Shown: positions 23,137 through 53,797, numbered from the stretch's first letter. The stretch: DNA of 64,000 nucleotides from Nitrosopumilus sp. (GCA_965219345.1 OZ244732.1:160001-224000); one strand, 5' to 3'. Translations and numbers: made by a program. Notes: generated from the letters alone by a model not told the origin.

Positions 23137-23234
23137 GCCGGGGTCGCCTAGCCTGGTAGGGCGCGCGCCTGGAAATAATTTACCATAAAGCGCGTTCTCG
23201 CAAGGGAACGGGAGTTCAAATCTCCCTCCCGGCG
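23137..23234 (+). tRNA. tRNA-Ser(GGA) with a 14-nt intron at 37/38 (23175-23188)
   Basis: Acceptor GCCGGGG/TCCCGGC, anticodon stem CGCGC/GCGCG, long variable arm, GTTCAAATC T-loop. Confidence 0.93.
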
Positions 23235-49788: not shown

Positions 49789-50833
49789 GACAGTTTTCAT
49801 TGTGGACTTGCTTGCAATTTTTGCAATCTACCTTATTGTTAATCTAAGCTTAAACATGGAATTTGGATATGCTGGAATTCCAAATTTTGGAAAAGTTCTA
49901 GCAGTAGGTGCGGGTGCATTTGTTGCAGCATCAGTTCCAGGTAGGATTTTTGCCAATATTGCGGGAATTGAGGGAGATTACATTGAAAACAATTTGGCAA
50001 TAGTCTCTGAAATTAATGTCTGGCTAGTGGATAATACTGGAATAGGGTTTGTGGTATTCTTTTTGACACTAGGTATTGCTGCAGGAGTAGGTGGAGGTCT
50101 AGGGTTACTCACATCATTTCCTGCCATACGGCTACGAGGCGATTATCTAGCAATTTCATTACTAGCTTTTGGTGAAAGTATAAGAATAATTGGAAATAAT
50201 TTCACTCCATTAGTTGGCGGTACACTAGGAGTTCAGGTACCAGATCCATTATCATTTCTTCCAGGAGAACTACGATTCCCAGTAGCTACTATGGGATTAA
50301 TCCTAATCGCAATTGTTGTGTATGTGTATAGTGAAAAAATGATTCGTTCACCACTTGGAAGAATGCTTCGGGCAGTTAGAGATAATGAAGTAGCAGCTGA
50401 ATCGCTTGGAAAAAACACCACACAGATAAGAATTAAAATAATCATGGTATCTGCAGCACTTGCGGCCATAGCAGGTGCATTGTATGCATTTTATGTTGGT
50501 GGAACAATTGCCTTTGCGTACGATAGAGCAAGTTGGACTTTTTGGCCATTTCTTATGATTCTCATTGGAGGATTAGCAAATAACAAGGGAGTAATTATTG
50601 GAACACTTCTCTTTGTTACACTACGAAAATTCATCATATTCTTCAAAGATTCATTTCAAGAATATGTTCCATTTGATGTTGTTTGGCTTGACTTTTTGTT
50701 GCTTGGGATAATTTTACTTGCAGTTTTGTTATATAGACCACGAGGAATTTTTGTTGAAAAACCCACACCGACTATAGATGCAAATGATAAACCACCAAGA
50801 TTAAAGAAAATATTTAATTTCTTTTTTAAATAG
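49772..50833 (+). CDS. livM: Liv ABC permease
   Basis: RLRGDYLAI, GRMLRAVRDNEVAA. Confidence 0.9.
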   Translation: MVLEAETVFIVDLLAIFAIYLIVNLSLNMEFGYAGIPNFGKVLAVGAGAFVAASVPGRIFANIAGIEGDYIENNLAIVSEINVWLVDNTGIGFVVFFLTLGIAAGVGGGLGLLTSFPAIRLRGDYLAISLLAFGESIRIIGNNFTPLVGGTLGVQVPDPLSFLPGELRFPVATMGLILIAIVVYVYSEKMIRSPLGRMLRAVRDNEVAAESLGKNTTQIRIKIIMVSAALAAIAGALYAFYVGGTIAFAYDRASWTFWPFLMILIGGLANNKGVIIGTLLFVTLRKFIIFFKDSFQEYVPFDVVWLDFLLLGIILLAVLLYRPRGIFVEKPTPTIDANDKPPRLKKIFNFFFK

Positions 50834-51069
50834 GTTCTCCTATACGAAATCGTCTCTTATCCTACTGCATGAAAGAATCAAATCTTGAATCATTTGGGGC
50901 AGAACCATGTCACGCAAATTTAACACCCACTTTGAATTACGACTCTGATGAATTTTGGCGATTTTGGAGAAAATTCAGATCATGCAAATTTAACGGGGCA
51001 AACTCCATGTCACGTATTTTTAACAGTATCATAATTTTCTTCGTGTTAACTGCCGGGGCTTTTGGGATG

Positions 51070-51294
51070 TTACATAAACATTACATAAAGAATTTTTTTT
51101 GTAGAATTAACTAGAAAACTTACCTTTTGTCCCAAATTTAGAGTAAATTCTATTGTGTGTTCGGTTACTTGTAATTCAAGTAGGTGTGGCACAACGTTTG
51201 ATATGGAAATTATCAAGTTGTCAAGGTGAATTTGTTGTTCAACTGACAAATTTTTCCTTGTTTTCTTAAAATCATGTATAGGTTTTATGATCAT
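51070..51294 (-). CDS. Small protein, possibly a RelE/ParE-like toxin (74 aa)
   Basis: MIIKPIHDFKKTRKNLSVEQQIHLDNLI resembles a RelE N-terminus; GAGGT SD upstream. Confidence 0.4.
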   Translation of the reverse strand: MIIKPIHDFKKTRKNLSVEQQIHLDNLIISISNVVPHLLELQVTEHTIEFTLNLGQKVSFLVNSTKKILYVMFM

Positions 51295-51320
51295 ACTGAA
51301 CCTCAAAAAAATATAGTAAA

Positions 51321-51440
51321 TTATTTCTCCATTCCTTTCACATATTCTGTAAAAGAGTGATATTCACAGGATTCTATTTCACCTGACTCAACTTTGTCAA
51401 TGATCTCTTTTGGAGTCATATCTTTGAGAGAAATTGTCAT
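51321..51440 (-). CDS. 39-aa acidic protein, possibly an antitoxin
   Basis: MTISLKDMTPKEIIDKVESGEIESCEYHSFTEYVKGMEK; starts 7 nt after the transposase stop. Confidence 0.45.
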   Translation of the reverse strand: MTISLKDMTPKEIIDKVESGEIESCEYHSFTEYVKGMEK

Positions 51441-51447
51441 ATTATTT

Positions 51448-52581
51448 CTAAAAATATGTTGTATATATGTTAACCATACGTGCATTTTGGATTAAAATAA
51501 TCCATTTATTTTTACCCTTGATCTCAATACCTGCCCTACTAGCTGGTGTATCGCCGTCTAATCCCATATGTGGCCTGATGTAATTGTGGCATAGTTTGAT
51601 TCCAGTTATTGCAGGTGAATCATCAGATTTCAATCCTCTGAACATTTTTTCACGATCACGAAACTCTCCGTTAAGTCTCTCCTGAATGTTGTTGTTGTTT
51701 CTCTGGTTTTTGAAGTGAATCTCCCTGATATGCGTGCTGTCCTTGTGCAGGAAATTCTTTGGTGCAAACTCCTTCTTGAATGCGTCATTATACGCTGGTA
51801 AACCGTCTGTTACAAAAACAGAAGGCACTTTCTTTGCCGTCTCTTTTCCCATCTTCAAGAGGCTATGAGCATCATGCTTGAATTTTGAATCCGCAACCTC
51901 TTGAGATATCCAAAATCTGGTTTCATTGTCCATCATTGCAAAGAGGTATTTTCTGTCTCCCTTGACCTTGAGCCAAACCTCGTCAGCGTGCCATTCCTCA
52001 CCGACTTGTGGAGTAATCGTACTAAGATAATCATCCATGAGTTTGGTGTATTTCTTTATCCACTTGTAGATTGAAACATGGCTCATATCCACACCCTGAA
52101 GCTTCAGGAATTTTTGGACGCCTCTAAGGGATTCACCCGTGAAATACAACTGCATTGCAGAAGTGATAACCTGTGGTGAGGCATGCATCTTCTCAAATCC
52201 TAGATTGATTGAGAATTTCTTGTTACAACCCTTGCAGTAATATCGCTGGATTGAATGTGTCTTGTTCTTTCTAATTCCCTTTTTCTTGATGTTCTCAGAA
52301 TTGCAGAAAATACAACAGTCAGATTGTATCGGTTCTATAACAGTTTTTGATTTTACCTCCTGTCTTATCTTTAGTGAAATCTCAACTGCATGAATGTGTT
52401 TGCAACAAGTCCTTCTAAATCTATGATCCTCGCAGGAACAGGACCAGCCAGATTCAACAGCTATAACGTCATGCTGTCTGTCTCTGGATTGGGAGCTTAC
52501 GACATAGTGGTTTTCATCTATTCTTGTAATCTGGTCTTGTTTTTGTGTAATTTCTCTGCCTCTTTGCTCTCTGAAATTCAT
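51448..52581 (-). CDS. IS6/IS240-type DDE transposase with SWIM finger and Zn ribbon
   Basis: CSC..H..CKH (SWIM), CIFC..CKGC, WHADE, FVTDG, NNNIQERLNG. Confidence 0.9.
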   Translation of the reverse strand: MNFREQRGREITQKQDQITRIDENHYVVSSQSRDRQHDVIAVESGWSCSCEDHRFRRTCCKHIHAVEISLKIRQEVKSKTVIEPIQSDCCIFCNSENIKKKGIRKNKTHSIQRYYCKGCNKKFSINLGFEKMHASPQVITSAMQLYFTGESLRGVQKFLKLQGVDMSHVSIYKWIKKYTKLMDDYLSTITPQVGEEWHADEVWLKVKGDRKYLFAMMDNETRFWISQEVADSKFKHDAHSLLKMGKETAKKVPSVFVTDGLPAYNDAFKKEFAPKNFLHKDSTHIREIHFKNQRNNNNIQERLNGEFRDREKMFRGLKSDDSPAITGIKLCHNYIRPHMGLDGDTPASRAGIEIKGKNKWIILIQNARMVNIYTTYF

Positions 52582-52618
52582 ACGTAATACACCTCAAAAA
52601 ATATTAGTGGGGGTTGAT

Positions 52619-52702
52619 CAAGAAAAGATGAGGGGTCAGAACTCTCCTGCTCATCACGGAGGTCAGAAGGAATGGAACTCATCATCCCCCTCATTTTTCT
52701 TG
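52619..52702 (-). ncRNA. Box C/D guide sRNA
   Basis: C ATGATGA (52685-52679), 12-nt guide, D' CTGA (52666-52663), C' GTGATGA (52657-52651), 11-nt guide, D CTGA (52639-52636); 16-bp terminal stem with one bulge. Confidence 0.85.
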
Positions 52703-52797
52703 TATTCATATCATACTATACCTTGAACCCACACATATACTATACTTTTGATTCATATATGTGTATAAGTTATATAAGGGGTAATATACGCTGTTGT

Positions 52798-52941
52798 ATG
52801 AGTATGAAAGTGGATGGCGATTATTGGCGCCATGAGTGCAACAGATGCGGCAATATATGGTACAGTGTAAATGAATCTCCAAAAAATTGTGCTGGCATAA
52901 AATGCAAATCGCCGTACTGGAACAAGGAGAGGGTTCGCTAA
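52798..52941 (+). CDS. Small Zn-finger protein (47 aa), divergent from the transposase
   Basis: CNRCGNIW...PKNCAGIKCKSPYWN; TTATATAA box about 25 nt upstream. Confidence 0.7.
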   Translation: MSMKVDGDYWRHECNRCGNIWYSVNESPKNCAGIKCKSPYWNKERVR

Positions 52942-53081
52942 TATTGACTCAGAGAGAATCTAACCCAATCGGTGTTGGGTGACGACAGTTAACACGGATA
53001 AAATTTTCAGACAGGTGACTGTAAGTTAACAGAACCAGATTTAGCAAACGGCTTTATCCTAGTTTTTAGGCACTATCAAGC

Positions 53082-53696
53082 ATGACGTTAAAAAATGTAA
53101 AACCATCACTAAACAAGATTGCAAAATCTTTAGGCAATATTCAAGATTCAAGAGAATTTCTACTAAAAAATACAAGAGAAATAATTATTCTCTGTAGCAG
53201 ATCAATTATTGCCGTTCACAAAGGAGATCTAAAAACTGGGAAAAATAATTTAAAACAAGCAGACAAGTTGTTGAAAAAATACAAGAAAAAGGCGACAGGT
53301 GGACTTGGAAGATACTTAATCACCCCGGAACAAGAATTTGTCGAGGCTGCATGTCTTATTGCGATTGTTGAAAAAAAAGAAATTCCTTCAGATAAAAAGT
53401 TGTCAGTGATGCCAGAATCATATGTTTTAGGATTGTTAGATTGCATAGGTGAATTGAAAAGAACAGTATTTGACAGAATTAGAATTGGGAAGGTAGAGGA
53501 GGCCTCACGAGTTTTTGAAGTAATGGAAAATTTGTATCTTCATCTTTACACTTTTTCAATGTATGATAAAGTGGTAAAAGAAGCTAGAAGAAAAATTGAT
53601 GTAAATAGAATTCTAGTGGATGATGTCAGATCTGTAATTACAGAAGAAAAAAGGCGAACTGAACTAATCAGGACCTTGCAAAAACTAGAGAAATAA
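53082..53696 (+). CDS. Translin-family protein
   Basis: QEFVEA, YVLGLLDCIGELKR, RRKID. Confidence 0.85.
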   Translation: MTLKNVKPSLNKIAKSLGNIQDSREFLLKNTREIIILCSRSIIAVHKGDLKTGKNNLKQADKLLKKYKKKATGGLGRYLITPEQEFVEAACLIAIVEKKEIPSDKKLSVMPESYVLGLLDCIGELKRTVFDRIRIGKVEEASRVFEVMENLYLHLYTFSMYDKVVKEARRKIDVNRILVDDVRSVITEEKRRTELIRTLQKLEK

Positions 53697-53712: not shown

Positions 53713-53797
53713 TGCGGGCGATGGGATTTGAACCCACGAACTCCTGAGAGACTAGCCCCTCAAGCTAGCGCCTTTGGCCAGGCTGGGCGACGCCCGC
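53713..53797 (-). tRNA. tRNA-Leu(GAG)
   Basis: Acceptor GCGGGCG/CGCCCGC-A, anticodon arm CTAGC-TTGAGGG-GCTAG, long variable arm. Confidence 0.95.

Follow-up and report, generated by a model that had tools for sequence, protein, structure and literature searches.

What is a gene for a guide RNA doing directly in front of a transposase? The question is raised by a 64,000-nt stretch of DNA from Nitrosopumilus sp. (GCA_965219345.1 OZ244732.1:160001–224000; hereafter the window). In an earlier note on this DNA, a complete box C/D guide RNA was picked out on the minus strand inside an IS6-like transposon, and it was proposed to recruit the host sRNP, either to act on a target RNA or to control translation of the transposase. 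The RNA biology of ammonia-oxidising archaea has been little studied. Full-text searches of the open literature, covering the main text of articles, turned up no report of a C/D sRNA gene located in an IS6-type element or acting as the leader of a transposase. The parts (C/D sRNAs, IS6 transposases and termination-reinitiation coupling) are known, while the arrangement in which they appear to be combined here is not. The features of the element are collected in Table 1.

Table 1. Features of the transposon and of the box C/D unit that it carries, in coordinates of the window.
Feature	Position	Strand	Basis or remark
IS6-family element, ~2.2 kb, with extra ORFs	50833..53036	-	Empty site in congener G007; GG-tipped repeats at both ends
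Terminal inverted repeat, transposase-upstream side, inward start GGTTCTGTTAACTTACAGTCACCTG	53000..53036	-	IS6 GG tip and cTGTt; 38-nt repeats of paralogue c3
Terminal inverted repeat, transposase-downstream side, GGTTCTCCTATACG...	50833..50868	+	94–97% identity to the end of another IS type
Further GTTAAA..GCGTGACATGG repeats	50870-51025		
Subterminal repeat arm, core CGTGTTAACTG	51026..51055	.	Pairs with 52983-53012; 30 nt, 80% complementary
Partner arm of subterminal repeat	52983..53012	.	Pairs with 51026-51055
Small ORF, 78 aa, downstream of transposase	51070..51306	-	No Pfam match
Small ORF, 54 aa, downstream of transposase	51321..51485	-	No Pfam match; 78% DNA match in G017
Transposase, 377 aa, N-terminal SWIM/Zn-finger region and IS240/IS6-type DDE domain	51448..52581	-	Pfam, ORF call
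Conserved linker before transposase ATG	52582..52607	-	A/T-rich TATA-like block 52607-52596; GAGGTG 52595-90
Leader reading frame, 43 codons, MNTRKMRGMMSS...EVYYV	52578..52709	-	Spans whole C/D unit; TGA overlaps transposase ATG (ATGA)
Candidate box C/D sRNA unit (stem, C, guide, D′, spacer, C′, guide, D, stem)	52619..52702	-	Sequence, fold, homologues, stem covariation
5′ stem strand (17 nt)	52702-52686	-	
Box C, ATGATGA	52685-52679	-	
D′ guide, 12 nt	52678-52667	-	
Box D′, CTGA	52666-52663	-	
D′–C′ spacer, 5 nt	52662-52658	-	
Box C′, GTGATGA	52657-52651	-	
D guide, 11 nt	52650-52640	-	
Box D, CTGA	52639-52636	-	
3′ stem strand (17 nt)	52635-52619	-	
Divergent ORF, 89 aa by ORF call; conserved C-terminus CxxC...C, Zn-ribbon-like	52672..52941	+	No Pfam match

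The candidate unit has, judged by its sequence, the full anatomy of a box C/D sRNA. Archaeal members of this class have a 5′-proximal box C (RUGAUGA) and a 3′-proximal box D (CUGA). Between these lie guides of ~12 nt and the D′ and C′ boxes, which are separated by a spacer of 3–9 nt, and C and D are joined by a terminal stem that covaries among homologues. All of these are found here. The four consensus boxes and the guides of 12 and 11 nt had been read exactly as they stand in the sequence, and the 16-bp terminal stem described for the unit consists of 8 + 8 bp around a single bulged C and makes up the entire centroid structure. The gap to the transposase ATG, given earlier as 38 nt, is 37 nt (ATG at 52581). 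The predicted fold has a minimum free energy of −28.3 kcal/mol (z = −2.0), and a T-rich tract lies 3′ of the stem. The 1.9-Mb genome contains two matches to a strict four-box pattern, each ~50 nt upstream of a transposase paralogue, and none of five shuffled versions of the chromosome contains any. Across 101 genomes of the genus the pattern matched seven times in five genomes, against none for a reversed-pattern control. No Rfam model reached its gathering score with the unit. In a permissive search (301 nt) the top matches covered archaeal C/D families over their full length, led by the Pyrococcus C/D family RF00095 (snoPyro_CD) with 33 bits (gathering score 45; E = 2.4e-5), and the other matches with E < 0.01 were the archaeal C/D families sR5, sR3 and sR1 and the eukaryotic SNORD18; the archaeal C/D models in Rfam derive from other lineages.

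Sequence comparison places the unit in a genus-wide (Nitrosopumilus-like) sRNA family whose members mostly stand alone, and it is not peculiar to the transposon. With a covariance model trained on seven transposon-linked units, matches at E ≤ 0.01 were obtained in 62 of 151 genomes of the genus, mostly at stand-alone loci. Several genomes hold tandem arrays, and one of them (G162) carries seven units of 130–145 nt, each with an A/T-rich block upstream. The stem (A/T)GAGGGC...GCCCTC(T/A) is common to all array and stand-alone units. In an alignment fitted to the model, 88% of stem positions are paired against 77% after shuffling, nine of the 13 pairs have changed on both sides and none of 500 shuffles did as well, while slid controls fell far lower; one pair is C-G in six of the aligned copies and, by a compensatory change, G-C in that of the window. 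The host genome encodes a single Nop5, as well as a fibrillarin and an L7Ae, all of them outside the element. Its single Nop gene lies 0.86 Mb away, and each genome has one Nop gene, distant from the sRNA arrays. A TIGR-like reading of the stand-alone arrays was ruled out, there being no Nop gene nearby.

The sRNA unit is borne by the transposon and is not a host gene of this locus, as follows from an empty site together with the ends of the element. In a congener (G007), flanks that are 90% identical to those in the window stand ~30 nt apart, where the window has 2203 nt between them, which disposes of the concern that the unit might be an ordinary host sRNA present at the same place without the insertion. 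The inserted block starts GGTTCTCC... at 50833 and finishes ...AACAGAACC at 53036, with GG tips and the cTGTt of IS6, so that IS6-type terminal repeats do enclose the unit as had been claimed. The end at 53036 reads GGTTCTGTT... and has the GG tip followed by cTGTt that is described as a hallmark of the family (Varani et al., 2021, PMC7986276). The end at 50833 is a variant common to another IS type, of which there are five copies in the genome, and because of its near-identity to that type the two ends appear to be of mixed origin. No target-site duplication is visible in the flanks of the window element; with its unlike ends, this copy may be chimeric and may no longer move. The subterminal repeat arms had also been considered as the ends of the element, and were displaced by the GG-tipped positions on the evidence of the empty site and of the repeats of paralogues. 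One such paralogue (c3) has 38-nt repeats beginning GGTTCTGTAACG and an 8-bp duplication, ATCAGAAC, and has split another IS; a second (CD2) has identical terminal repeats 3.4 kb apart, flanked by the 7-bp repeat TAATGAT. A BLAST search within ±1.3 kb of eight other copies gave no convincing inverted repeats, because those elements are longer, and in two further genomes (G009 and G087) the upstream terminal repeat was not found within 6 kb.

The IS6-type elements of these archaea are cargo-carrying transposons, with a restriction-modification system, another DNA methylase and RNA genes among the cargo. These elements span 2.2–4.6 kb. CD2 contains a BglII-type restriction-modification pair and a MazE/AbrB-like gene, and c3 a DNA methylase, an endonuclease VII and a MazE/AbrB-like gene; the cargo of the window element is three small ORFs without a Pfam match. 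One of these is the divergent ORF, whose first 31 nt overlap the sRNA stem on the opposite strand, and the segment that holds it is repeated elsewhere in G000 and at least five times in G007. The statement that this is a DDE transposon without a Nop-domain protein of its own is borne out by Pfam, which gives neither a Nop-domain nor an IS110-type protein among the ORFs of the element. The window element is best described as a cargo-carrying relative and not as a classical IS. It shares with IS6/IS26 the DDE_Tnp_IS240 transposase, GG-tipped cTGTt repeats and, in c3, the 8-bp duplication. It departs from the compact form of that family (~0.7–0.9 kb for the majority of clades, more in clades h and i, and no gene besides the transposase) in its length and cargo, its N-terminal SWIM/Zn region, its RNA-gene leader and its ~38-nt repeats. 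In the available text of the review, a single IS6 member with a passenger gene is named (PMC7986276).

The transposase is assigned by its match to DDE_Tnp_IS240 (PF13610; 2.3e-14, 54 bits against a cut-off of 27), whereas the SWIM match is weak. About 36 transposase-like matches occur in the host genome, and a scan upstream of related transposases, which had been suggested as a check, finds the same unit again with its boxes conserved and its guides different. Upstream of CD2 lies a second perfect C/D unit with guides of its own; other paralogues are preceded by a degraded C/D copy (box C ATAATGA) and by a C/D-like variant (c8), and in two copies the C/D slot is taken by a tRNA-Leu(CAG)-like gene. 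Of the seven strict-pattern matches in the 101 genomes, six precede a transposase start by ~50 nt and are followed by the same linker, and the remaining one is a host-type sRNA from a GC-rich contig. Four of the six transposases are full length (38–42% identity to that of the window, its own counted among the four), the other two being truncated. Further transposase-linked copies with partly decayed boxes are also present. Related units have guides of 12 + 12 nt and spacers of 4 or 7 nt. Boxes C and D are conserved in all seven aligned copies, save box C in the degraded one, and boxes, stem and linker persist across copies while the guides differ between subfamilies. Beyond the genus the module is rare: when 80 transposase loci (from Nitrosopumilaceae, Nitrosotalea, Bathyarchaeia, Methanoperedens and others) were compared with the covariance model, one gave a match. 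By eye, one or two more of these 80 loci are C/D-like or tRNA-like.

On the transposase tree, C/D leaders occur in both deep clades, interleaved with copies that have tRNA-like leaders or none, and between CD2 and two leaderless paralogues (c3 and c4) DNA identity stops within a few bases of the ATG. From its sequence distribution, therefore, the leader behaves as an exchangeable 5′ module; its patchiness on the tree, combined with the same linker sequence carried throughout, fits a module that can be swapped. Not every copy is functional, since codon 6 of the transposase in CD2 is an in-frame TAA. Within the linker, GAGGTG stands 8 nt before the transposase ATG and is complementary to the 16S 3′ end (...GGATCACCTCCT). 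It is found at that spacing in the window copy, CD2, G087, G155 and L124, with weaker variants in other leader copies, and the linker may act as a promoter, as a Shine-Dalgarno sequence or as both.

The transposase-linked units are also traversed by a small reading frame that continues into the transposase start. Its AUG pairs inside the extended terminal stem. Box C and the ATG are separated by 104 nt in six of the ten transposase-linked C/D copies, by 107 in two, and by 113 and 119 in one each, every distance being 2 mod 3, and the frame is open in eight of the ten, both exceptions being degraded. In a set of 14 leaders that partly overlaps these ten (nine C/D, three tRNA-like, two C/D-like), every one has 43–68 open codons and the ATGA overlap; the chance of an open frame is 0.03–0.11 per leader sequence, although the copies are related and such counts overstate their independence. 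The other two frames in this set are mostly closed within 2–14 codons. In the tRNA-Leu-like leaders, whose ATG lies immediately next to the 5′ end of the tRNA, 50 and 68 codons are open, and the frame is also open in a tRNA-like remnant (C1:951658-951748), in c8 and in L124. It remains open in two copies (G155 and G094c) in which the D′, C′ and D boxes have decayed. When the same frame is followed in stand-alone sRNA genes, the median is 10 open codons, and at least 34 are open in 6 of 27 genes; three of the 30 units were left out of this control, their box C not having been found. Among the 80 wider archaeal loci, 34 have an ATGA start by an automatic guess, and four of these 34 have at least 41 open codons, two or three of the four carrying RNA-like leaders.

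The leader peptides are unrelated between the C/D and tRNA types, save for the last 8–10 residues, which correspond to the conserved linker, and for this reason selection would seem to act on translatability and not on a protein. A frameshift fusion of leader and transposase was considered and rejected, as the transposase frame of the window copy shows, by eye, a stop (TGA in TTGAGG) five codons before the ATG and the leader peptides are in any case unrelated. The sequence also points to a constraint on the RNA that is separate from that on the frame: the C′ box survives both in the window copy, where it is read as R-D-E, and in CD2, where another frame reads it as M-M-S, and the compensatory G-C pair is of the same kind.

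Archaeal C/D sRNAs guide 2′-O-methylation, the target nucleotide being the one that pairs with the fifth guide position upstream of D or D′. The guides were scored by their longest Watson-Crick runs against 100 shuffles, a measure that recovers rRNA sites for stand-alone guides; an earlier scoring by total pairs was discarded, having failed even on host-type candidates and lacked a working positive control. Stand-alone guides fit LSU 2063, SSU 905, SSU 532 and SSU 1345 with runs of 9–11 nt that begin one nucleotide from the box (p = 0.01–0.04), and the family is therefore taken to include genuine rRNA guides. One of them, GTTCCATTCATT, found in stand-alone units of G162 and G094, pairs with 11 contiguous nucleotides of LSU starting one nucleotide from D′ (p = 0.01). 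The D′ guide of the window copy is one base off this sequence; it matches LSU 2065 over 9 contiguous nucleotides (10 of 12 positions in all; p = 0.11) and carries a mismatch two positions from the predicted methylation site. The longest run of its D guide is 7 nt (p = 0.78). Elsewhere, the D′ guide of a further transposon-borne unit (G094a) has a 10-nt run on tRNA-Ala(UGC), one nucleotide from the box (p = 0.02), and no significant run on rRNA or tRNA was obtained with the guides of CD2, of the degraded copy or of G009. Of the 10 transposon-borne guides tested (five units), 6 match rRNA and tRNA in runs of at most 8 nt and 7 have p ≥ 0.33, so that transposon-borne guides are, by complementarity, mostly orphan.

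Two copies nevertheless point to selection on the guides themselves. Between G009 and G087 the guides are identical at 24 of 24 positions, whereas the 3′ stem and linker agree at 38 of 54 and the start of the coding sequence at 72 of 110. Identity of the guides despite diverged flanks argues that some copies act in trans as well, a function that would lie outside a pure leader role; coding constraint and recent conversion are the alternatives. Some transposon-borne sRNAs probably do still guide in trans.

The reading we favour, with confidence somewhat short of even, is that an IS6-family transposase has taken on, as its 5′ leader module, a captured box C/D sRNA gene of host type, and that folding and sRNP assembly compete with translation of the leader. 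Since the small frame passes through the RNA into the transposase start, the RNA unit probably gates the amount of transposase made as well. Transcription would start at the sRNA promoter and give an RNA with a 5′-proximal AUG. Where a ribosome loaded before the 3′ stem strand had been made, the leader would be translated, the C/D fold melted and translation reinitiated at the transposase ATG, with the GAGGTG motif assisting termination-reinitiation. Where the RNA folded first and L7Ae, Nop5 and fibrillarin assembled on it, the AUG would be sequestered, the transcript trimmed to a stable sRNA and little transposase produced. The element would thereby borrow a stable-RNA promoter, hold its transposase low and spread sRNA genes as a by-product, and the tRNA-like genes of sister copies would do the same job through tRNA processing. 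Expression, transcript starts, translation, coupling, RNP binding and processing are the parts of this model that we infer. Of the two roles proposed in the earlier note, control of transposase translation thus gains support, by a route which that note had not seen, namely a conserved leader frame coupled to the start codon. The TATA-like block 20–30 nt before the transposase ATG could, on the other hand, drive a separate leaderless transposase mRNA, in which case expression would be independent of the leader and the coupling model would be weakened. A broader claim, which we hold to be doubtful, is that a family of IS6-type archaeal transposons gates its transposase by a stable-RNA gene, the transcript being at once a precursor of a C/D sRNA or tRNA-like RNA and a leaderless mRNA, in which translation would have to pass along the short frame through the RNA before the transposase start is reached, with RNP assembly or tRNA processing in kinetic competition with ribosome loading.

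Other explanations have to be weighed against the leader model. The unit may simply be cargo, a working methylation-guide sRNA gene acting in trans from its own promoter and terminator, with the open frame tolerated and unused. The consensus boxes, the homology to stand-alone sRNAs that fit rRNA, the closeness of the window D′ guide to one that pairs with LSU, the run on tRNA-Ala(UGC), the identical guides of G009 and G087 and the T-rich tract 3′ of the stem are all in keeping with such a gene. This account leaves unexplained, however, why the frame is open in all 14 leaders, with indels in multiples of three and an ATGA overlap, why it persists in copies whose boxes have decayed and why tRNA-like genes in the same slot are read through too; the largely orphan guides, and the mismatch so near the predicted methylation site in the window copy, also count against it, and we consider it unlikely, if a serious contender. 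The opposite extreme would make the C/D motif a relic, a captured sRNA gene in decay that forms no RNP, so that only the translated leader or spacer is functional. Copies such as G155 and G094c, which retain frame and transposase without intact D′, C′ and D boxes, would suit it well, as would the prevalence of orphan guides and the observation in Pyrobaculum that loss of targets is usual among sRNAs whose genes overlap an ORF at its 5′ end (PMC6009581). A relic would hardly be expected to keep four consensus boxes in six independently sampled copies whose transposases are only ~40% identical, to show a covarying stem, to conserve the C′ box in two different reading frames, or to hold 24 guide positions constant while the neighbouring sequence diverged, and we judge it improbable.

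Still less weight is given to the view that the GC-rich stem and T-tract form a terminator or barrier against read-through from cargo or flanks, the boxes being incidental. It draws on the 16–20-bp stem followed by TCTTTTCTT and on the position of the unit between cargo and transposase in the window copy and CD2; conservation of boxes and guide spacing far exceeds what a hairpin needs, an open frame through the unit is not something that a terminator would call for, and tRNA-like genes take its place in sister copies, which together make this quite improbable. Finally, the two guides and host Nop5 might direct the transposase or a nuclease to DNA, in the manner of the IS110 and TIGR-Tas systems with which the unit had been compared. 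There, as far as the consulted parts of these reports go, a mobile-element RNA carries two guide segments, and C/D-Nop5 is evolutionarily linked to IS110 (PMC11208160; PMC12045711; bioRxiv 10.1101/2024.06.21.599552). The case for an RNA-guided DNA transaction here is one of analogy only, a two-guide structured RNA adjoining a recombinase gene, and the comparison found no support: the element has no DEDD/IS110 or Nop-domain protein, and the arrays, too, have no adjacent Nop gene. Guides were compared with the ends, interior and flanks of their own elements, and in six of six elements nothing exceeded the shuffled null, the sole perfect match being the antisense of the guide itself. Genome-wide guide matches are as many as expected by chance, related copies have a tRNA-like gene or no RNA gene at all, and c3 inserted with an ordinary 8-bp duplication. 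We give this explanation almost no credence.

The leader model can also be set beside what is known of related RNAs. Like other archaeal box C/D sRNAs, the unit belongs to a host that encodes L7Ae, Nop5 and fibrillarin, and its sister genes show canonical rRNA complementarity. It differs from them in its stem, which is 13–20 bp here and a few bp in theirs, in lying within a transposon at a fixed distance from the transposase, wholly overlapped by a conserved sense frame, and in the mostly orphan guides and a score below every Rfam gathering score. The nearest precedent is in Pyrobaculum calidifontis, where multicopy MITE-like elements contain C/D-like units with conserved inverted repeats and orphan or non-conserved targets, and have been proposed to mobilise sRNAs (Lui et al., 2018, PMC6009581). 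Those elements are, in the text consulted, short and non-autonomous, with degenerate D′ and C′ boxes and no transposase, whereas the present unit, with its internal boxes intact, belongs to an autonomous IS6-type element and would be coupled to the transposase start. The same study associates sense overlap of C/D sRNAs with ORF 5′ ends with loss of guide-target pairing (PMC6009581); the ORF in the present case is a short leader of unconserved peptide sequence that ends on the transposase start codon. A K-turn upstream of the start codon has been described in archaeal 5′ leaders, where binding of L7Ae could repress translation (PMC5539422; PMC6298567). The position of the candidate K-turn unit, 37 nt upstream of a start codon, would fit such control. 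It differs in being a complete dual-guide C/D unit and not a single K-turn, read through by a leader frame and located in a mobile element.

If the leader model is correct, these elements would show concretely how guide-RNA genes of the C/D class can move and multiply in archaea, a mobility previously suggested only from MITE-like relics in one Pyrobaculum species. They would also represent a new form of transposon self-regulation, in which a host stable-RNA gene and a coupled leader frame precede the transposase, and a natural test system in ammonia-oxidising archaea for the contest of sRNP assembly or tRNA processing with translation on one transcript. Should gating by stable-RNA genes hold for such a family, the rate of transposition would be tied to the RNA-biogenesis capacity of the host, and the transposon would be a vehicle that seeds new guide-RNA genes around the genome.

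The slot immediately upstream of transposases that the C/D unit (a box C/D sRNA gene with boxes C, D', C' and D, two guides and a terminal stem) fills exactly is occupied elsewhere by tRNA-like genes, in three cases. The anticodons of the tRNA-like set are Ile, Arg or Leu(CAG) despite long variable arms, and the acceptor stems are richer in A/T than those of host tRNAs. Two Arg(CCT)-like members lie directly downstream of transposase remnants, one of the two adjoining a repeat-like motif at the end of the element, and a canonical-looking tRNA-Leu(CAG) is separately present in the window's own genome (G000). Within the window, the tRNA at 23137-23234 probably contains an intron, because it spans 98 nt against the 71 positions of the Rfam model, and a translin-family gene (53082-53696) adjoins both the IS6-family element and the tRNA-Leu(GAG) gene.

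Features and their coordinates (C1, contig of G000; L, extracted loci)
Feature	Location	Strand	Source
C/D sRNA gene array	L089:4026-4931	-	
C/D sRNA gene array	L090:4027-4777	-	
C/D sRNA gene array	L091:3756-4554	+	
C/D sRNA gene array	L092:3845-7226	-	
C/D sRNA gene array	L093:3825-4620	-	
tRNA gene	window 23137-23234	+	Rfam
tRNA-Leu(GAG) gene	window 53713-53797	-	Rfam
tRNA-like gene	L014:1366-1452	+	
tRNA-like gene	L017:2656-2742	-	
tRNA-like genes	C1:951658-951748, 969887-969977, 903933-904019, 1038939-1039023, 1235416-1235499, 1718374-1718456, 334078-334164		
Terminal repeats resembling the window element's downstream repeat, in five G000 copies of a different IS type	C1:70885-70920, 93053-93088, 485076-485111, 1278645-1278681, 1485228-1485262		
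Cargo region, CD2 element	L178:205-2030		
Cargo region, c3 element	L179:1381-2814		

In several congeners C/D sRNA genes form tandem arrays of 4 to >10 genes with a period of ~130-240 nt, the units being in part duplicated and the C or C' boxes degenerate in some; no Nop-domain gene was found near these arrays. One congener (G162) has two that are near-copies of one another, and a hairpin-like motif, GGTCGCGTAATTAGACGACC, occurs four times ahead of its array. A perfect C/D sRNA, with a D' guide that matches the one in a conserved host-type sRNA (G000 C1:1193401-1193450), was also found on L046 (G043:C84:1-2284). This contig is rich in GC although the genome it is part of was binned to the present AT-rich genus, and it may come from another organism.

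In IS6-type elements of G000, cargo genes fill the interval from the upstream repeat to the transposase. They comprise a BglII-like endonuclease, an N6/N4 DNA methylase, a Zn-ribbon ORF and a MazE/AbrB-like gene in the second C/D-bearing copy (CD2), and a methylase, endonuclease VII and a MazE/AbrB-like gene in the element of a transposase paralogue with 38-nt repeats (c3). Codon 6 of the CD2 transposase is an in-frame TAA (L178:2256-2285), and a few codons further on ATGATG restarts a 364-aa ORF. In the window element, a small ORF of Zn-ribbon-like type, oriented divergently to the sRNA, is encoded at 52697-52940 (+); this segment recurs at 72-78% identity in at least five copies in congener G007, which do not adjoin C/D matches, and once more in G000, beside a transposase remnant.

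The downstream repeat of the window element (50833-50868) shares 94-97% identity with the repeat that terminates a different IS type, the interior of which starts GGGCCATTCTCAGTG; the ends of the window element are therefore mixed in origin. Just inside the left end (50870-51055) lie three or four direct repeats of ~29 nt, GTTAAA..GCGTGACATGG...GCCCC. In congener G017 the segment 50892-51051 itself recurs at least three times (81-83% identity), a pattern that resembles a MITE or a transposase-binding array.
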